Of a stretch of 38,076 nt of DNA, positions 6,950-24,890 are shown piece after piece. The first letter of the stretch is position 1. The number at the start of each line of letters is the position of its first letter. The translations under genes were made by a program, and so were the position numbers. The stretch comes from a virus (taxonomy: Duplodnaviria; Caudoviricetes), in IMG/VR virus record IMGVR_UViG_3300028392_000013, positions 1-38,076 of that record; one strand, 5' to 3'. Below the pieces are notes generated by a model. The model had not been told where the DNA came from. It did no database searches and saw only the letters and a program-made list of their open reading frames with translations.

Positions 6950-7060
6950 CGCCTAACGGTTATCGGTAAGCGTCCCCGTGACTGCACCAAGGCAACCGCT
7001 ACGATTAGGCGTAAACGAGCTGCCGCGATCACGGGGATGCGGTAACAACAGGAGCAGCTC
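6950..7060 (+). ncRNA. Candidate pseudoknotted cis-regulatory leader RNA
   Basis: Crossing helices 6950-6956/7005-7011, 6970-6981/7029-7040 and 7017-7023/7054-7060. Confidence 0.5.
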
Positions 7061-7061
7061 C

Positions 7062-7472
7062 GTGGTTTGCCAGCAATGTGGTATCACCGATGACTCGACT
7101 GCGACCGCTAGGTATTTCTTTCGCACCAAGCTGAAGCTTTGCTCTTCATGCAGGGCGGTCCCTAGGTTTCAAGTAAAGACCGCAGCTGGCTGGTGCCGTC
7201 CTTGGAAGGGCGAAACAGATGACAACTGGAATCCGATAGACAACAACGGCAACCTTGTGATGCCCGGCATACGCAGTTGCGGATACAAGGACTGCATGCA
7301 CGAAGATCATGTGATACCTGAACCAGATACGATCGGCACTTTTAGGTGCAGACACAAACATGTGACGGCGACGATTTTGAGATCGCAAACTTTAGTTGAG
7401 ATACCGCCGTGTAGTATTTGCGGCGAACCAACGTCTATGGTTTCACGTGAAACAAATGGCGTTCGCTTATGA
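7062..7472 (+). CDS. Cys-rich zinc-binding protein
   Basis: GTG 7062 with AGGAG at 7050-7054 preferred over 6978; CQQC, CSSC, CGYKDCMHEDH, CSIC. Confidence 0.65.
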   Translation: MVCQQCGITDDSTATARYFFRTKLKLCSSCRAVPRFQVKTAAGWCRPWKGETDDNWNPIDNNGNLVMPGIRSCGYKDCMHEDHVIPEPDTIGTFRCRHKHVTATILRSQTLVEIPPCSICGEPTSMVSRETNGVRL

Positions 7473-8027: not shown

Positions 8028-8347
8028 CGCGAAAAGAGTTTCAACGGTTTCTTGATCGCGATCGCAGCTGCTATCACTGCGGTAGATCTGACGACACGCT
8101 GATCCCGCAGCACAGGAAGGGAAGGGGGATGGGTGGCAGCAAGGAACGGAACAGGGCAAGCAATGTGGTGGTGCTTTGCAGCTGGGCGAACGGCATGATT
8201 GAAGCTAACGCGGACTTTGCGGCGACGGCACGGGAGCTGGGCTGGGCTTTGAGATCAGGGCAGGATCCTGAAGGCACGCCGATCCGCGACGCGACGGGGA
8301 CGTGGTGGCAGCTGAATGACCAGTTTGAACGGTTTATTACGTTTTGA
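8012..8347 (+). CDS. HNH endonuclease family protein
   Basis: RDRSCYHCG, QHRKGRGMGG, NVVVLCSWAN. Confidence 0.8.
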   Translation: MAARLTRKEFQRFLDRDRSCYHCGRSDDTLIPQHRKGRGMGGSKERNRASNVVVLCSWANGMIEANADFAATARELGWALRSGQDPEGTPIRDATGTWWQLNDQFERFITF

Positions 8348-8440
8348 TAAATATGGCGTTTTTACCCTTTTATTAGACAAAGTTCAGTAGTGTGGAAGTA
8401 CAGCGAAGGGCTGGGCACCACCTAAACGAAGGAGCTACAA
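8336..8440 (+). promoter_or_regulatory. Early promoter/leader module 2
   Basis: ATTAC-n6-ATAAA, TTAGACAAAGTT, -10 TAGTGT (8388-8393), CAGC-GAAGG-GCTG hairpin, AACGAAGGAG RBS. Confidence 0.7.
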
Positions 8441-8689
8441 ATGACAACCACCACCACCATCTACGAGATCAGCACTTACGGCTTTGCAGGTTTCTACGGC
8501 AAGCAGCTGGTCAACGGCAAAGATGGAATGACACACGCAGCGATCGTAGTCAACGAGCACAATGAGATGACAATCACACTGCACGTCAACGAAAAGGCTG
8601 CACAAGCTGGACTACGCAGACTACTTTCAAGCTTCGACAAACAAGCACTCGGAGCAAGCGGCACCACTTACCCTGCATACGCAATCTAA
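8441..8689 (+). CDS. Hypothetical early protein
   Basis: 82-aa ORF with strong RBS. Confidence 0.75.
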   Translation: MTTTTTIYEISTYGFAGFYGKQLVNGKDGMTHAAIVVNEHNEMTITLHVNEKAAQAGLRRLLSSFDKQALGASGTTYPAYAI

Positions 8690-9444: not shown

Positions 9445-9659
9445 CCAGCAAGATGCATGCGGAGCTTTGGCAGCAAGCCGTGACCGCAGCGGTGAACTGG
9501 CTTACACACGGCTCCGCTTTGACGCCGCAGCAACGGTCCAGCTTTTACTCTTTCATTGATCAGATCGCAGAATACGAACGACAAGCACCAAGCTCGATCA
9601 AACGGCTGGTGCTTATGGACGCCGTCGAAATTGTGGCGAAGGGCAAGACCAATGACTAA
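9441..9659 (+). CDS. Hypothetical protein
   Basis: ATGA-coupled start MTSKMHAELW. Confidence 0.65.
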   Translation: MTSKMHAELWQQAVTAAVNWLTHGSALTPQQRSSFYSFIDQIAEYERQAPSSIKRLVLMDAVEIVAKGKTND

Positions 9660-9807
9660 GGACGAACAGATTGACCAGCTGCAAACGCAGATCAACGTGA
9701 CAAGGATGATCGCAGCTCAACCGATCAACGCGGCTCTTGCAGCAACCTTTCAATTGCGGCTGGCAGATTTGGAACGCGAAATGGCGGAGTTGATCCGTCC
9801 AGAGTAG
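9652..9807 (+). CDS. Small hypothetical protein
   Basis: MTKDEQIDQLQ..., ATGACTAA overlap. Confidence 0.6.
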   Translation: MTKDEQIDQLQTQINVTRMIAAQPINAALAATFQLRLADLEREMAELIRPE

Positions 9808-10207
9808 TGCCAAGTTTCCTCGCCCGCGGATAAGGGGATCTGGTTTCAACCGAGCAAAGCGGGCGGGGATTTGGCACGTCTGGGAGCTCCAAGTTGCAAC
9901 CCGCCGCAAAGGGCAGTACTGTCGAACCCGTGGACATTGATCCGCACTCACGCCTAACCCGCGGAGCTATCGACCGTTAGAAGGCGTCGATGTGGCACGC
10001 CCGAATGGTCAGCACGGGCGATCGCTAGGACAGTAGCAGATCAGGATCACGATCATCGAAACGAGCTCCCCGATGACGCAGCACCGACGGGATCCTGAAT
10101 ATGGCGGAGCTGGGCAACTTGTAGTGGGTTGCTCCCTTATACCGACACCCGAAGACTTATACGGGCTGGATCGGGGGAAGGCTGGCTCTAAGCCTTTCCC
10201 TGCCCTT
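9807..10207 (+). ncRNA. Large structured non-coding region (candidate ncRNA or replication origin)
   Basis: Longest gene-free stretch; many nested helices closed by 9909-9916/10200-10207; strand assumed from context. Confidence 0.55.
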
Positions 10208-10243
10208 GGAGCTTACCGAGCTGAATGCGGTCAAATAGGGTTA

Positions 10244-10359
10244 ATAACGATTTGATAAACTTCGGTTAGAACACGCCGCAAAGTAGCATTTAGACCTGAA
10301 AAGTGGCATACTGGAACTACAGGGAAGCGAAGGGCAACCCTCCAAACGAAGGACACAAA
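10244..10359 (+). promoter_or_regulatory. Early promoter/leader module 3
   Basis: ATAAC-n6-ATAAA, AACACGC, TAGCAT-17-CATACT (10284-10312), GGG..GCGAAGGGC..CCC hairpin, AACGAAGGA RBS. Confidence 0.75.
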
Positions 10360-10644
10360 ATGCTACAGAAGGTAACCAACAAGGCGATCGCTGAGATCCT
10401 AGTCAACGCTGGAATTGAAAAGGCGATTTACAGCAATGCACGCAAGCAGCTGCCACAGAACGAAGGCTTCCGCTTTCAAACTTTCAAGAACGAATACCAC
10501 AACCTGCTAAGCATTTACGCAGCAACCACTTACTGGAACGACGACAAGCAGATCGAGCTTGCAACCAAAATCAGTGCAGCACTTACCGCGGCGGGCATTT
10601 CAAACGTACGCAACAACGACCGCGTCAGCATTGAACGAGCATAA
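10360..10644 (+). CDS. Hypothetical early protein
   Basis: Start MLQKVTNK at 10360 behind the conserved RBS; the GTG at 10303 lies inside the promoter. Confidence 0.75.
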   Translation: MLQKVTNKAIAEILVNAGIEKAIYSNARKQLPQNEGFRFQTFKNEYHNLLSIYAATTYWNDDKQIELATKISAALTAAGISNVRNNDRVSIERA

Positions 10645-10658
10645 GGAAGGGCAAGCAA

Positions 10659-10709
10659 ATGTCGGTGGTTCAAAATAACATCTCGAACAAAGGAGCAAAC
10701 AATGGATAG
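10659..10709 (+). CDS. 16-aa mini-ORF coupled to the exonuclease gene
   Basis: AGGAAGGG RBS then MSVVQNNISNKGANNG*; stop overlaps ATG 10702. Confidence 0.4.
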   Translation: MSVVQNNISNKGANNG

Positions 10710-11601
10710 ACAGACACTCATCGCGGCATTGATCGCAAAGGATGACTCAAGGGCACGCAGCAAGCAGACCGCGATTGGCGTGAGCTCGCTGGGCGATTGC
10801 CGCCGTAAGGTTTGGCATATGAACCGCGGCGACGAAGGCACCAACACCACCCGCCGCCTTGCCGCAATCATGGGCACCGCGATCCACGCAGCAATCGAAG
10901 CTGCCATCGAAGGCACCGACGCCCTGATTGAGCACCGCGTAGAAGTTGAAGGGTTACCACCCGCAACAATCGACTATTTCAAGGACGGCGAAGTCATTGA
11001 CTGGAAAACAATCACGATGAAGAACAGGGACTACTTTGTTACTAAGCAGAAGCGGTGGCAAATCCAGACTTACGGCTATCTGCTAAGTCAGACAGGCGTG
11101 CCAGTTCACACCGTGACCTTGGTGGGAATCCCGCGTGACGGCAGCGAAGACGACATCCTGATCCACAGCGAACGCTACGACGAAACGATTGCACTGGAAG
11201 CATTGCAATGGCTTAAGGACGTTCAAGCCGCACAAGAACCGCCGCAACCAGAACGCGACCCTGCAACGTTCTGCAAAAGCTATTGCCCGTTTTACGGCAA
11301 CCAGTGCAACGGGATCACGAAGGACCTTGAAGGGGAACCGATCACGGATCCGTCAGCGATGAACGCAGCACTTAGATACAAGGAGCTCAACGTCCAGATC
11401 AAACAGCTCGAAGGCGAAAAGGACGCAGCAAAAACTGCCCTTGAAGGCGTCAGCGGCATCACGATCGACGGCATCAAGGTGAGCTGGTCCGAGATTTCAG
11501 GACGAAGCACGCCAGATCTAGACGCAATTGAAAAGGCGTTGAACGGAGCACCAATCCCGATGAAGACTGGTAGCCCGTCCGTTCGATTAAACATTAAGTA
11601 A
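10702..11601 (+). CDS. Cas4-like PD-(D/E)XK exonuclease (likely RecE-type partner of Bet)
   Basis: IGVSSLGDCRRK, GTAIHAAIE, ID..VIDWKT, QIQTYG, FCKSYCPFYGNQC. Confidence 0.88.
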   Translation: MDRQTLIAALIAKDDSRARSKQTAIGVSSLGDCRRKVWHMNRGDEGTNTTRRLAAIMGTAIHAAIEAAIEGTDALIEHRVEVEGLPPATIDYFKDGEVIDWKTITMKNRDYFVTKQKRWQIQTYGYLLSQTGVPVHTVTLVGIPRDGSEDDILIHSERYDETIALEALQWLKDVQAAQEPPQPERDPATFCKSYCPFYGNQCNGITKDLEGEPITDPSAMNAALRYKELNVQIKQLEGEKDAAKTALEGVSGITIDGIKVSWSEISGRSTPDLDAIEKALNGAPIPMKTGSPSVRLNIK

Positions 11602-12218: not shown

Positions 12219-12621
12219 GCTGACATGCACGCTGGCGATCGCAGCTAAACCACAAGGCAGCAAGACACCGTTCAAAACAAAGACGGGCAAGCTTGTCGTT
12301 GTTGAATCATCACCGCAACTTAAAGTGCAGCGAGCAAAGATGAGCAAACTGATCGCAGCTCTCGCAGCGGTCGAAGGTTGGCAAACACCAAGTGCAACGA
12401 CACCGATCAGCGTGACGATCACGTGCGGCTTTGAACAACCAGCAAGCAACCAGCTGGACCATCACACCAACGTCCCCGATTTGGATAAGCTCGTGCGTTT
12501 CTGTTTAGACGCTTGCACGGACGCAGGAGTATGGCTGGATGACAAACAAGTCACAAGGATCGACGCCCGCAAAATTTATAGTTTAGAATCCAGCACAAGA
12601 ATCGAGATCACTTATGAATAG
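12211..12621 (+). CDS. rusA: RusA-like Holliday junction resolvase
   Basis: KPQGSK; PDLDKLVRFCLDACTDAGVWLDDKQV. Confidence 0.92.
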   Translation: MPKLTCTLAIAAKPQGSKTPFKTKTGKLVVVESSPQLKVQRAKMSKLIAALAAVEGWQTPSATTPISVTITCGFEQPASNQLDHHTNVPDLDKLVRFCLDACTDAGVWLDDKQVTRIDARKIYSLESSTRIEITYE

Positions 12622-12871
12622 ACCACAGGTGCAAACCATCATGCAATTTGCTCTTGATCCGTTGTGGGAAGACGCAACGTGTCAATACACGGACCCTGAA
12701 ATATTTTTTGCATTGGATTTAGGATCACAAGTCCAAGCAAAGGAAGTCTGCGACAGCTGTCCGATCAGGATGCAGTGCTTAGATTACGCGATCCAAGCCA
12801 AAATTGAATATGGTATTTTTGGCGGATTTACGCCAGAAGAACGCAACAAAATAAAAAAGACGCTACACTAG
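12614..12871 (+). CDS. whiB: WhiB family transcription factor
   Basis: W..ATC..TDPEIFF, CDSCPIRMQCLDYA, GIFGG. Confidence 0.95.
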   Translation: MNRPQVQTIMQFALDPLWEDATCQYTDPEIFFALDLGSQVQAKEVCDSCPIRMQCLDYAIQAKIEYGIFGGFTPEERNKIKKTLH

Positions 12872-15755: not shown

Positions 15756-16309
15756 AGTTAGCAATTGCTGATCCGCCATATTTAGGCAGAGCAGTTAGAT
15801 GGTATGGGAAAAATGGATGTGGCGATGGTTATGGAGTCAATCAGGCAGACAATCATCCTGAAGCTTACTTGTGGGACTTACCAGAAACACATCAAAACCT
15901 AGTGATTGATCTTGAAAAGAATTTTGATGGCTGGGCAATAGCGATGACCGTGCATTCATTATCGACCTACTTGAAAGTTGTAGAAACCGACTCACGAAAT
16001 GGAATTAGAATAGGCGTCTGGCATAAACCAACTGCTTATCCAAGTGGCAGCAGGATCGGTAATCACTGGGAACCCGTGCTATTCAAAATACCTAAAGAAC
16101 GCAAAGGAAGAAGCACTGGTAAACCAGTTAAAGATATTTTTACAGCCGCACCATTAAAAAATAACTTTGTGGGATCTAAACCGCCTGAATGGACCGCGTG
16201 GGTATTAGACATGTTAGGTCATCAAGCAGGAGATGAAATTGTCGATTTATTCACAGGATCAAATGCAGTAACAAACGCAATAAATAACATTAAAAAGGAA
16301 ATAAAATGA
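15752..16309 (+). CDS. Compact DNA methyltransferase
   Basis: ADPPY near the N-terminus; FVGSKP and DLFTGS at the C-terminus; AT-rich. Confidence 0.8.
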   Translation: MKLAIADPPYLGRAVRWYGKNGCGDGYGVNQADNHPEAYLWDLPETHQNLVIDLEKNFDGWAIAMTVHSLSTYLKVVETDSRNGIRIGVWHKPTAYPSGSRIGNHWEPVLFKIPKERKGRSTGKPVKDIFTAAPLKNNFVGSKPPEWTAWVLDMLGHQAGDEIVDLFTGSNAVTNAINNIKKEIK

Positions 16310-16593
16310 AACTTAGACCACTAAACGACAACCTGATCATTGAACCAATCCAAGTTGAAGCAACAACAGCAAGCGGACTGGTTCTGCCAGACGCCGCAGT
16401 AGACAAACCAGAACACGCAACCGTGATTGCAACCGGTGACGGCAGCTTAACGTTTGACGGAACCCGCGTGCCGATCGGCGTGGACGTTGGCGAGATGATC
16501 TTGTTCAACAAGCACGCTGGCATGGAGCTGAAGGCGGGCGACGGTAAATACTTGTTGATTGCAGCTCGCGACATTTTGGCGGTCATAGAATGA
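16306..16593 (+). CDS. groES: Co-chaperonin GroES
   Basis: LRPLNDNLII, TTASGLVLPD, VIATGDG, VGEMILFNKHAG, DILAVIE. Confidence 0.95.
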   Translation: MKLRPLNDNLIIEPIQVEATTASGLVLPDAAVDKPEHATVIATGDGSLTFDGTRVPIGVDVGEMILFNKHAGMELKAGDGKYLLIAARDILAVIE

Positions 16594-21384: not shown

Positions 21385-23238
21385 ATGGGAATCTTTGATA
21401 AAGCAATCGAACGTCTAGCGACACAGATCAGCAAGGCAACACCGCAACCAATCGTCACACCGATCACCGACGATCAGATCCGCAACGCAATGCAGCAATA
21501 CGGCGTATCGGTTGGCTTGCCACGCGATCCACGTTTAGCGGGCATACCTTTCAGCCCCGGCTTACCGATCGTCCCGTCATCGATCAACCCGCTAGGACCA
21601 GACGGCAGACCGCAGCCACGCCGCTACGAATACGCGTCCGCACAGAACATCAACATCACACCAACAAAGCTCGTCCCTTTTGGAACGCTTAGAGCAGCTG
21701 CAGAACAGATCGACATCCTACGCCGATGCATTGAAGTGTTGAAAGCCAAGATCATCGGCATGGAATGGGACATCGTCCTAGGCGAAGACGCCGTCGAAAA
21801 GATTATGGCGGAAACGGGCGAACGCAGCTACACGAAAGCAATGCAGATCGCAAAGGACAAGTACGGCACCGAGATAGATCGGCTCAAACAGTTCTGGGAA
21901 ATGCCTGATGTCAGCAACGGGCTAGTTTTCGGCGACTGGCTAAACATGGCACTTGAAGACATCCTAGTTTTAGACGCCTTAGCGATCTACCCGCAACGCA
22001 GCATCAAAGGCGAACTCAAAGGCTTACAGATCATCGACGGATCCACAATCAAACCACTGATCGATGACCGCGGCATGCGACCAACACCACCGAACCCTGC
22101 GTTCCAACAGATCCTGTATGGCTTTCCAAGATCCGAGTTTGCGGCAGCTGACGACAGCGAACAAGCAGACGGCGAATTCAGCTCAGACGAGCTCGCATAC
22201 CTAGTCCGCAACAGACGCAGCAACAGCATCTACGGCTACTCACCAACAGAACGAGCACTACCGATCGCGGACATTTACCTGAGAAGGCAGCAATGGATCC
22301 GTGCCGAATACACCGACGGCGTGATCCCCGAACTCCTTTTGAAAAGCGACGGCACTTTCACACCTGACCAGATCCGTGCATACGAAAACATTTTGAACGA
22401 CTACCTAAGCGGACAGACCGAACAACGCAAGCGAGCAACGATCCTGACACAAGGGCTAGAACCAGTGCAGCTTGAAGGCTACGGCGAAAAGTTCAAGGAC
22501 ACCTTAGACGAATACCTGATCACCGCGATCACTGGACACTTTGGTGTGCAGCCAAGCGAGATCGGCATGACAGCTAAGCAAGGGCTAGGCAACAGCGGCG
22601 TGCAGCACGGGCAAGCAAGCAGTGCTGAACAGATCGCAACGATCCCGCTGGCAAACTGGCTGAGCAAAATGTTAAGCCAGTTGAGCTACAGCTGGCTCGG
22701 AGCACCAAGGGCTTTAGAGTTCAAGATCATGCCATCATCCCGAACCGACTTTGAAGCGGTCGCAAGGGCAAACGACATCAAACTGAAGAACGGCACCCTG
22801 ACCCGCAACGAAGCACGCAGCAAAGAAGGTCTGCCACTTTTGAATTCACCCGTCGCAGATCAACCAACAATCTACACAAGCAGCGACGTCCTGATCATCA
22901 CCGAAGAAGGCGTGGAAAGCATAAGCGGTGTTGATCCGTCAGCGGAACTACCAGCCATACCAGAGCAGCCAGCACAGGTCGAAGCTAAGCCAGAAGAAGC
23001 CGCAGCTCCGATCGCAGCCGCAGAAGACAACACACCGACAGAAGAACCAAGCGACCAGCCAGACAACAAGGCGGCACGCAACGAGCTCTACAAGTTTATG
23101 AGATGGATCCGCAAGAACCCGACTAACACGTTTGCCTTTGAGCACGTGCCAGCAACATACGCGGAAACACTAAACAAGTTCATCAGCGTCGAAGACTTTG
23201 AAGGAGCACGCTGGTACGCGGAACGCTACCTAGCATGA
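21385..23238 (+). CDS. Portal protein
   Basis: 617 aa after terminase; IIDGSTIKP, IYGYSPTE, LTRNEARSKEGLP. Confidence 0.92.
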   Translation: MGIFDKAIERLATQISKATPQPIVTPITDDQIRNAMQQYGVSVGLPRDPRLAGIPFSPGLPIVPSSINPLGPDGRPQPRRYEYASAQNINITPTKLVPFGTLRAAAEQIDILRRCIEVLKAKIIGMEWDIVLGEDAVEKIMAETGERSYTKAMQIAKDKYGTEIDRLKQFWEMPDVSNGLVFGDWLNMALEDILVLDALAIYPQRSIKGELKGLQIIDGSTIKPLIDDRGMRPTPPNPAFQQILYGFPRSEFAAADDSEQADGEFSSDELAYLVRNRRSNSIYGYSPTERALPIADIYLRRQQWIRAEYTDGVIPELLLKSDGTFTPDQIRAYENILNDYLSGQTEQRKRATILTQGLEPVQLEGYGEKFKDTLDEYLITAITGHFGVQPSEIGMTAKQGLGNSGVQHGQASSAEQIATIPLANWLSKMLSQLSYSWLGAPRALEFKIMPSSRTDFEAVARANDIKLKNGTLTRNEARSKEGLPLLNSPVADQPTIYTSSDVLIITEEGVESISGVDPSAELPAIPEQPAQVEAKPEEAAAPIAAAEDNTPTEEPSDQPDNKAARNELYKFMRWIRKNPTNTFAFEHVPATYAETLNKFISVEDFEGARWYAERYLA

Positions 23239-24890
23239 GCTGGCAGAAGAAGTTTGACGGCACCGCTGAACGATTAGCGGCAAGGCACGCAGACAAAATC
23301 AACAACGCAATGAGCAAAGGCATCAACGTCGCCGCGATCGTAAGAGCATGGCTGGAAACGCAACCAAGCCCGAAGACCACGCGAGAGCAAGCAGCGGTAT
23401 GGGTTCACCACAATGTGATCCCGAACACCGAACCACTTGAAGCAGCTTTGAAAGACATCTATGTTGAAGGCTACGCGTTAGGGCAAGCGTTCGCAGCGAC
23501 CGCCTATGCCAGAGCAAAGCTGTCGATCAAGAAGGCGGCACCAACGGGCGACGACTTGCGGGCAGCGTTCGAAACTGACTGGGACAACTGGCAAGCAGGA
23601 TCCGAAGCTCAAGCACTCAAGACAGAGAAGCCCGGTGCCTTACAGGATTTATTTGACCGAGCAGCGATCAGTGAAAAGACTAAGATCTGGAAGAACAGCA
23701 TGGATCGTCTAGGCGTGGTCATGGCAGACACGGCACGGGCAGGGCTGGGAGTTTCAACAACACAACAAGCGATTATTGAAGCACAGATCGGCTGGGGATT
23801 TGACGAAGCGTTAAAGGATCCGTACAAGGCGATGCGGATCGCACGCACCGAGATCAACCGAGCTCAAAGCTTAGCGACCATGGACACATACCGAGAGTAC
23901 GGATTGGAAAAGGTTGAATGGTTGGCAAGCGAAGGCGAATGCGACATCTGCTCAGGGAACATGGATCTAGGACCGCAACCGATCGACTTTGAATGGGACA
24001 GCATAGAAGGCGGAACAACGGAACCACCCGCACACCCGAACTGCTTGTGCACTTTGATGCCAGCGTTAGACAACGAACCAACAACGGACGAAGCTCAGGT
24101 TGAAGGGGAAACCGATCAGGGCGATCAGGTTGAGCTGCCAGCTGATGTTGAAGCGGCGGACCTTTCAGCGGTGGCGGTTGATTTGCCTGAAGCGGAGCAG
24201 CCAAGCACCGACGGCACGATCACGAATCATGAAGCCGAACCAGTTGCGGAAGTTTCAACAACCACCGCAACAAACATAGACAACTACAAACCAGCGGAAT
24301 ACAAAGAGCTGGCAGCTCTCGTGCCAGATCGTCTTAATGACAACGTAAAACTGCAGGACGCAATTGCTGAATACACGGGCAATAGCTACGTGCAAATGAA
24401 TGAATACCTGCGAGAAGGCAGAAACATTAGCGACAAAATGAAAGAGCACGTCGACAATCTACAAACCGCACTAGAATCACAAACCATTCCATCAGATATG
24501 CAATTTCAACGCGGACAATACAGTTTCAATAATTTTACAGTAAATACTAATCAACAAGGAGAGCTGCAATTTGAAAAATACGAGTACGATGCAAATTTCA
24601 ATAGACAATATGAAACGATGAGCATTGACTCGATAGTTGGACAAACATGGGAATCGGAAGGTTTCCTGTCAACAACAACAGCTACCGACTGGCAAGGCAA
24701 TGCAGCAACAAATAGGTTTCAAAACTACGATATACAAATTCACGTTTTAGCTCCAGCTGGCACACAAGGTATGGTTGTTAATAGCTATGAATCAGAATTC
24801 TTAATGCCACATGGCACCACGTTTGAGATTGTGAAAACTGAAGCAATAGGAATACAAGCACACGTGTGGATGAAAGTGATTAATCAATAA
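23235..24890 (+). CDS. MuF-like minor head protein with C-terminal ADP-ribosyltransferase (VIP2/C3-like R-S-E) domain
   Basis: RIARTEINRA, CDIC, PPAHPNCLC (MuF); YT..SY..MNEYLR, QRG, FLSTT, ESEFLMP (ART). Confidence 0.88.
   Translation: MSWQKKFDGTAERLAARHADKINNAMSKGINVAAIVRAWLETQPSPKTTREQAAVWVHHNVIPNTEPLEAALKDIYVEGYALGQAFAATAYARAKLSIKKAAPTGDDLRAAFETDWDNWQAGSEAQALKTEKPGALQDLFDRAAISEKTKIWKNSMDRLGVVMADTARAGLGVSTTQQAIIEAQIGWGFDEALKDPYKAMRIARTEINRAQSLATMDTYREYGLEKVEWLASEGECDICSGNMDLGPQPIDFEWDSIEGGTTEPPAHPNCLCTLMPALDNEPTTDEAQVEGETDQGDQVELPADVEAADLSAVAVDLPEAEQPSTDGTITNHEAEPVAEVSTTTATNIDNYKPAEYKELAALVPDRLNDNVKLQDAIAEYTGNSYVQMNEYLREGRNISDKMKEHVDNLQTALESQTIPSDMQFQRGQYSFNNFTVNTNQQGELQFEKYEYDANFNRQYETMSIDSIVGQTWESEGFLSTTTATDWQGNAATNRFQNYDIQIHVLAPAGTQGMVVNSYESEFLMPHGTTFEIVKTEAIGIQAHVWMKVINQ

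Follow-up and report, generated by a model that had tools for sequence, protein, structure and literature searches.

A conserved element with a predicted pseudoknotted fold excludes replication-initiator genes in related tailed phages: a candidate primer-RNA origin

Many phage genomes have no recognisable replication gene. How does such a phage begin to copy its DNA? The question is raised by the window, as we call the whole stretch of DNA analysed here, which is a complete phage record of 38,076 bp with direct terminal repeats. Its annotated genes all lie on the + strand and include terminase, portal, tail, RecT, a Cas4-like exonuclease, RusA, methyltransferases, and phage-borne GroES (16306-16593, +) and WhiB (12614-12871, +) genes; the WhiB gene suggests an actinobacterial host. 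Another gene (23235-24890, +) encodes a fusion of a MuF-like minor head protein with an ADP-ribosyltransferase domain (PF03496, E 2.7e-18). A sequence-only reading had seen no evident replication initiator, and indeed neither the 56 ORFs of the window nor a looser scan of 29 yielded an initiator, primase, helicase, polymerase or integrase. The same reading had pointed to a gene-free region at 9807-10207 and proposed that it was an undescribed large structured RNA or an origin/primer RNA. Is this region conserved, does it fold, and could it do the work of an initiator?

Conservation and fold of the element

The nhmmer homologs and their alignments define a conserved span of about 9900-10225, whatever genes flank it. 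The borders given earlier are thus not those of the element. Its gene-free character stands: the sole ORF on the + strand of the gap has 60 codons (10073-10255), the homolog alignments are rich in indels, and two copies in a second group of phages have stops in all six frames. Loci of the first group, retrieved via exonuclease, RecT and terminase matches, hold 19 distinct full-length copies (the window's included) and one partial copy, in phages of about 38 kb. A first DNA pattern search gave 17 matches, 3 of them known homologs and 14 rejected as homologs by the profile. A pattern of three conserved motifs then gave 37 viral loci, namely 4 known ones and 33 in new records, which form the second group (19 distinct after an identity filter). 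These score weakly with the first-group profile (E 9e-8 to 0.04) and at best E 0.007 with the model; the order of motifs and helices is the same as in the first group. Thirty-two of the 33 records are tailed phages of about 15 kb, six of them at least 90% complete and with a single copy each, while the remaining record, the WhiB-bearing G110 of 23 kb, represents a third lineage.

The element is found once per genome and is co-oriented with the genes. It lies directly before the exonuclease gene in 8 of 12 genomes and heads the early region in the other 4, and the downstream genes vary between exonuclease region, RecT region and HNH-terminase. Two similar promoter-like leaders were also noticed in the window, at about 8310-8470 and 10240-10360 (+; nhmmer E 2e-5), each preceded by a TTTGATAA motif, and TTTGATAA also follows the element in several homologs. 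Could the element regulate the early operon downstream of it in cis, as a riboswitch or antiterminator leader? It precedes early genes in most genomes, and its two direct repeats, R1 and R2, could be alternative pairings. Against this, the downstream genes differ among genomes, a promoter-like leader repeated elsewhere in the window separates the element from the next gene, and the exclusion with initiator genes described below would go unexplained. We regard a leader function as very improbable.

Is the element a member of a known family? Rfam gave zero matches at gathering score over the window, and only two chance-level matches up to E 10 over 9700-10400. Searched to E 1, seven homolog loci gave no gathering-level match save a separate tmRNA-like piece in one of them. 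This piece is an 84-nt stretch (L234:1112-1195, +, record G050) above the tmRNA gathering threshold (54.6 bits); it has both tmRNA ends with the middle missing, as a lone tRNA-like domain, and lies on the opposite strand about 200 nt beyond the element. ARAGORN found no tRNA or tmRNA in the window. A blastn search of cultured phages and plasmids returned one 30-nt chance match, one homolog searched against 72,556 plasmids returned zero matches, and two GTDB pattern searches returned 0 matches each. A description of the element was thus not found in Rfam, cultured phages, plasmids, GTDB patterns or the openly accessible literature; subscription papers and the supplement of Weinberg 2017 lie outside this scope and may bear on novelty. 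On the comparative evidence, the gene-free stretch is a real, conserved and uncatalogued structured element of about 325 nt, at about 9900-10225 (+), and the earlier proposal of an uncatalogued large structured RNA holds up.

The fold was assessed at several levels. The predicted structure of 9800-10215 is better than that of 100 dinucleotide shuffles (z -3.14 on the + strand, -2.81 on the - strand), as the sequence-only reading had led one to expect, while the conserved core alone reaches only about -1.5 (12 shuffles). To rank the helices, the columns of 18 sequences were scanned without bias after removal of one near-duplicate, and a 92-pair first-group model was built on 16 sequences, with L068, L077 and L147 left out. 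In the revised first-group model 85.1% of cells are paired, compared with 65.2% in shuffles and 35-43% when the model is slid, and 69 pairs change on both sides against 54.0 in shuffles. As this model was drawn from its own sequences, the second group is the fairer test. The fold transferred to 16 second-group copies gives 96.3% paired cells against 88.6% in shuffles, and 27 two-sided pairs against 10.1 expected, with 0 of 500 shuffles as high. A multi-pseudoknot fold thus covaries strongly in both groups.

Which contacts make up this fold? In the main pseudoknot, 10064-69 is predicted to pair with 10106-11 (96.7% paired, 5 of 6 pairs changing on both sides). A pseudoknot from this loop had been claimed before, with 9882-89 as partner; the loop was right, and the partner was not, since the covarying strand is 10106-11 and 9882-89 lies in unconserved sequence. 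A kissing contact would join 9957-59 in the P3 loop to 10007-09 in the P6 loop; its central pairs covary, and the kiss duplex is more stable with cognate than with non-cognate partners (-5.67 vs -3.59; 0/20000 permutations). Most homologs have an extra 5' pseudoknot, which the window copy does not have in that form, its first ~45 nt deviating from the 5' pseudoknot domain of most homologs. The near-invariant loop of P4, which may be T-loop-like, is closed by a pair that swaps between C-G and G-C, and the hairpin is retained in the second group. P7 is 58% paired in the first-group alignment, where its register is poor, and 98.7% in the second group.

The complementary stretches listed in the sequence-only reading are all present in the sequence, and several of its nested helices agree with the covariation of 16 homologs: 9999-10003/10015-19, 10041-51/10088-98, 10052-58/10071-77, 10112-34 and 10172-10202, with that at 9970-90 in a slightly different register. 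Its closing helix 9909-16/10200-07, and likewise 9917-23/10029-35, do not behave as conserved helices: 56.1% of their cells are paired against 54.6% in shuffles, and 113 of 500 shuffles do at least as well. The hairpin at 9807-77, counted there as part of the structure, is shared among the 19 copies only with the nearest relative; upstream of the element the other homologs have unrelated hairpins or none. Coordinates are collected in Table 1.

Table 1. Features of the element and its neighbourhood in the window
Feature	Position	Strand	Basis
Accessory upstream hairpin, outside conserved core	9807..9877	+	Fold; common only to L065
Conserved structured element, predicted RNA of ~325 nt	9900..10225	+	nhmmer homologs, covariation
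P3 hairpin, loop 9957-59 predicted to kiss P6 loop	9947..9966	+	96.9% paired, 5/6 pairs change on both sides
P4 hairpin, near-invariant 7-nt loop 9976-82	9970..9990	+	Invariant columns
P6 hairpin, loop 10007-09 predicted to pair with 9957-59	9998..10020	+	Stem 96.3% paired
P7 hairpin, length variable	10024..10037	+	By eye in each homolog
P8/P8a long stem, loop = 5' strand (10064-69) of main pseudoknot	10041..10098	+	18/18 pairs change on both sides
P9 junction: 3' pseudoknot strand 10106-11 and hairpin 10112-34	10100..10139	+	Covariation, both groups
Repeat R1, G-richer copy	10162..10169	+	R1/R2 likeness within homologs
P10 terminal hairpin between R1 and R2	10172..10202	+	88.5% paired; 98.5% in second group
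Repeat R2, 3' end of conservation, putative hybrid-formation site	10217..10224	+	Spacing, mismatch polarity
Cas4-like exonuclease gene, marks slot (element here, initiator in G033)	10702..11601	+	

Does the element act as RNA? Among the modelled pairs (1075 cells) G-U occurs in 121 cells and A-C in 23, an excess which fixes the + strand for the element. G-T pairs may be compatible also with a structure of single-stranded DNA. The element could then be an origin that works as folded single-stranded DNA, either a single-strand origin or a site of primosome assembly, which transcription or recombination would expose. Covariation is blind to RNA versus DNA, and in the available text of their paper Weinberg et al. 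raise single-stranded DNA for plasmid-replication motifs (PMC5737381). The 38-kb phages also encode RecT, exonuclease and RusA, from which a recombination route might be drawn, while a complete second-group phage (G109) has no recombination gene match. The G-U/G-T cells, three pseudoknot-type contacts and the co-orientation with transcription are more typical of RNA and speak against a DNA structure, so we judge this reading quite unlikely.

Mutual exclusion with initiator genes

If the element had a part in replication, its distribution might be related to that of initiator genes. ORFs of 17 near-complete genomes were clustered, and one 272-aa protein, identified as a replication initiation protein (phrog_2447, E 1.6e-27), was found in 4 of the 5 genomes without the element and in 0 of the 12 with it. 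The fifth element-free genome, G033, has a different initiator (phrog_270, E 1.8e-32), whose gene directly precedes the exonuclease gene, just where 8 of 12 genomes have the element. The 88+32 representative early ORFs of element-bearing genomes gave no match to an initiator, primase, helicase or polymerase. Six-frame searches were then made on 48 of 88 records (G000-G087), the other 40 being distant RecT-only matches, chance pattern matches and short terminase-bearing fragments. The element occurs in 15 of these 48 related records and an initiator (phrog_270 or phrog_2447) in another 15; 0 have both and 18 have neither, all of the last being at most 65% complete. The 17 records that are at least 90% complete divide into 11 with the element only and 6 with an initiator only; none has both or neither. 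One weak model match (G086, E 0.137, opposite strand) was confirmed by neither of two profiles and was counted as absent.

Was the exchange a single event? On a terminase tree of 26 rows there are 4 label switches, at least 3 of them forced by well-supported branches; a tree that unites the initiator-bearing rows in one clade is rejected (p-AU 0.002). In G032 the initiator match (G032:C1:1438-1827, +) holds 3 stops and is possibly a decaying gene; with G032 set aside, 3 switches remain on the tree as read.

The same swap is seen in smaller phages. A group of tailed phages of about 15 kb, without recognisable replication, recombination or integration gene, shares the element in 32 records. One of them, G109, is complete with 14,726 bp and terminal repeats, and carries the element directly before its HNH and terminase genes. 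No replication, recombination or integrase match was found among its 21 ORFs of at least 70 aa, which cover packaging, capsid, tail, HNH, phosphoesterase, transglycosylase and unknowns. The closest cultured capsid relatives of G109 are 15-kb Arthrobacter and Curtobacterium phages of low similarity; the mini phages share with cultured phages about 38-42% over 27-29% of the capsid protein, which makes them distant. The cultured Maggie, Kels and Penoan are gene-dense. Neither of two profiles finds the element in them, nor does a structural descriptor, which finds 16 of 19 first-group copies and gives 0 matches in 21 loci of initiator-bearing records. All three have instead a lambda-O-like initiator (E 5e-104, 1e-78 and 9e-18), whose gene in Maggie and Kels is separated from HNH by no more than one gene. 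These genes (L276:14116-14784, L277:13437-14213 and L278:553-1284) are annotated simply as helix-turn-helix or hypothetical. The family phrog_1032 occurs in 3/3 cultured, 0/33 second-group and 0/12 first-group records; it misses G024 and G033 and is therefore not a universal initiator detector. The second group adds one switch to the 3-4 of the first. In related phages the element and protein initiators are mutually exclusive, and this holds without exception for three initiator families and for two virion modules that are unrelated to each other.

Might the exclusion come merely from linked modules? The element could be a stand-alone large phage RNA or ribozyme, GOLLD/ROOL-like and unrelated to replication, with R1 and R2 as processing sites. 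Its complex fold with invariant junction bases would suit such an RNA, its position shifts within the early region (4 of 12 genomes), and by eye there is a faint likeness to motifs of group II intron D5/D6, RNase P and cobalamin riboswitches. Yet the exclusion holds over those three families and both virion modules, no guide for R1/R2 was found inside the RNA, and the element-bearing phages would be left without a known way to initiate replication. This reading is unlikely.

The single families fare no better, in agreement with the earlier remark that no signatures of RNase P, tmRNA or group I/II introns were recognised. Group II introns are marked by a domain 5 helix with an AGC triad and a bulged branch A in domain 6; here no Rfam match and no D5-type helix among the top covarying helices was found, the D6-like position varies between G, A and T, and the AGC-loop to R1 pairing is just 45.8%. 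RNase P RNA, with its P4 pseudoknot and universal conserved regions, gave no Rfam match, and no 5'-to-3' P4-like helix is among the top covarying helices. A cobalamin riboswitch has a four-way junction and a B12 box ahead of the regulated gene; Rfam gave no match to E 10, and the downstream genes vary. For tmRNA, with tRNA-like domain and tag frame, neither Rfam nor ARAGORN gave a match at the element.

A possible primer-RNA origin

Then what starts replication in these phages? The element is present in phages without an initiator gene, and their relatives have one instead, which makes it likely to be a primer RNA that starts replication. The origin/primer reading made from the sequence thus gains apparently strong comparative support from the initiator exclusion. 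An origin-related role of any kind is highly probable in our judgement, and we hold it moderately probable that the element starts phage DNA replication as a ColE1-like pre-primer RNA forming an R-loop. The direct basis of this model is the conservation, the fold by covariation, the single copy, the co-orientation and the initiator exclusion. Host RNA polymerase would transcribe the element, the transcript would fold into the predicted pseudoknotted RNA, and this RNA would pair again with template DNA into a persistent R-loop, which host RNase H and DNA polymerase I would convert into a primer. Most speculatively, the G-richer R1 in the RNA might pair with the template strand at the downstream R2 via rG-dT wobbles, in a contact like that of the rG stretch with the dC stretch in ColE1 RNA II, and hairpin P10 would bring R1 and R2 together.

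What suggests such a contact is the 8-nt direct repeat that flanks the last hairpin. R2 begins 55 nt after R1 in the window, and the spacing is 52-64 nt in 18/18 homologs and 52-61 nt in 13 second-group rows. R1 and R2 match better within a homolog (5.94/10) than between homologs (4.29/10; 0/20000 permutations). Counted over related sequences in registers picked for best identity, their mismatches run from G in R1 to A in R2 13 times and in reverse once, with C>T 2 times (against the model) and T>C once. Thirteen second-group rows add 18 G>A and none reversed (counted by eye, in close relatives that are not independent). This is the polarity that an rG-dT wobble would tolerate. No cognate partner for R1/R2 was found inside the RNA or in 300-nt flanks (one nominal p 0.047 among 8 tests), which would leave template DNA at R2 as the remaining obvious partner of R1. 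The P6 loop was tried as an EBS-like guide for R1/R2 and was not significant (p 0.13 and 0.23), and third repeat copies, as iterons would have, are absent.

Some observations count against the primer reading. A scan of sigma-70 type found no sigma-70 promoter or intrinsic terminator in 9500-10500. Switches are few, only 3-4 and one in the second group, and a primer would not obviously require so elaborate a fold. An antisense RNA I counterpart was not found either by the sigma-70-type scan, some homologs having unrelated hairpins upstream. A small phage initiator may also have gone unrecognised among the many ORFs without family.

Alternatively, the element might be an origin whose RNA is not itself the primer but serves as a scaffold, bringing in either a host factor (initiator or loader, such as DnaA, PriA or a helicase loader) or a phage protein that has escaped recognition. 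The same exclusion pattern fits, and invariant loops and junction bases suit protein binding. Before 2 of the 19 copies (L023, L025) there are DnaA-like boxes, three or four 9-mers in both orientations 40-90 nt upstream, which hints at host-initiator involvement there; such clusters are absent in the other 17, so DnaA boxes are not a general feature. A zinc/HNH-like protein (6978-7472, +), with CxxC..CxxC and a degenerate HNH_3-like C-terminal motif, is encoded in 12/12 element-bearing 38-kb phages and 0/5 other genomes. It has no Pfam or PHROG match, its structure model has no PDB match, and its Atlas neighbours are HNH_3-like, below 0.9. As an obligate partner it was rejected: three further contigs have it together with an initiator and no element, and it is unmatched among the mini-phage ORFs. 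A scaffold is, on the whole, an improbable explanation. Other genes of element-bearing relatives are an RNA ligase and polynucleotide kinase pair and a queuine tRNA-ribosyltransferase-like gene (L215:18054-19930, -, record G057; L199:5130-6014, -, record G046).

Returning to the primer model, the element is a concrete, clonable 325-bp candidate that would explain replication-gene-free genomes in two phage groups. If it works, it would bring a new DNA-opening RNA fold and a protein-free origin for actinobacterial vectors. In its boldest form, the model says that RNA-primed replicons have a third class, which evolved independently and belongs to tailed phages of Actinobacteria. It would be a mobile multi-pseudoknot RNA of 300-325 nt that replaces, and is replaced by, lambda-O-like initiator genes, that alone lets a replication-gene-free 14.7-kb phage hijack the host replisome, and whose folded core delivers one repeat onto the template at the other. 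This full statement might equally well prove right or wrong.

Comparison with known systems

How does the element compare with the replicons and RNAs already described? The ARRPOF, GEBRO and PAGEV motifs, whose models are presumably included in Rfam, belong to other hosts, and there was no Rfam match on the window or 7 homolog loci; they are set apart on these grounds. They are alike in being covarying motifs of 223-349 nt tied to replication, and ARRPOF further in sitting in a region that replicates without rep, by the available text of PMC5737381. GOLLD and ROOL, in the same text, are also large pseudoknotted RNAs borne by phages (PMC5737381), while the element is shorter, has no Rfam match and no tRNA gene in the window, and is exclusive with initiators. 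The R-loop origins oriF and oriG of phage T4 share transcript-primed initiation in a tailed phage; as far as the accessible text describes them, they consist of promoter and unwinding element and use T4's own replisome, whereas our phages combine a conserved RNA fold with the lack of any recognised replication enzyme of their own (PMC4412123). The system of PMC12753305, from what is available of it, is protein-based and not relevant to the element.

RNA-initiated replicons have been reported for two plasmid families, ColE1 and MRB (PMC3035462), and these are the sole bacterial RNA-primer replicons named in the available text of PMC6380287. The MRB (marine RNA-based) replicons of Vibrionaceae are likewise Rep-less with an origin transcript of 250-500 nt; in MRB only the RNA I region is reported to be conserved and the action of RNA II to be uncharacterised, while for the element it is the long RNA fold that is conserved (PMC3035462). 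MRB replicons are plasmids and the element belongs to phages, and no plasmid match to it, such as to the conserved MRB RNA I region of about 110 bp, was found. In ColE1, the hybrid made by RNA II persists, is trimmed by RNase H and is extended by Pol I, and pairing between an rG stretch in RNA II and a dC stretch in the template is required, according to the accessible parts of PMC5043065 and PMC4412123. ColE1/pMB1 RNA II and the element are alike in the absence of an encoded Rep initiator, in a long structured origin RNA (PMC5043065, PMC4412123), and in an RNA segment whose match lies further downstream on the template, for which R1/R2 would be the counterpart here. They differ in that the element gives no sequence or model match to RNA I or RNA II (Rfam; 72,556 plasmids), has its own conserved multi-pseudoknot fold of ~325 nt, occurs in tailed phages with actinobacterial markers, and has no antisense RNA I found with it. 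We therefore propose that the element, while not a member of the ColE1 family, may follow the logic of ColE1 RNA II with an unrelated fold.
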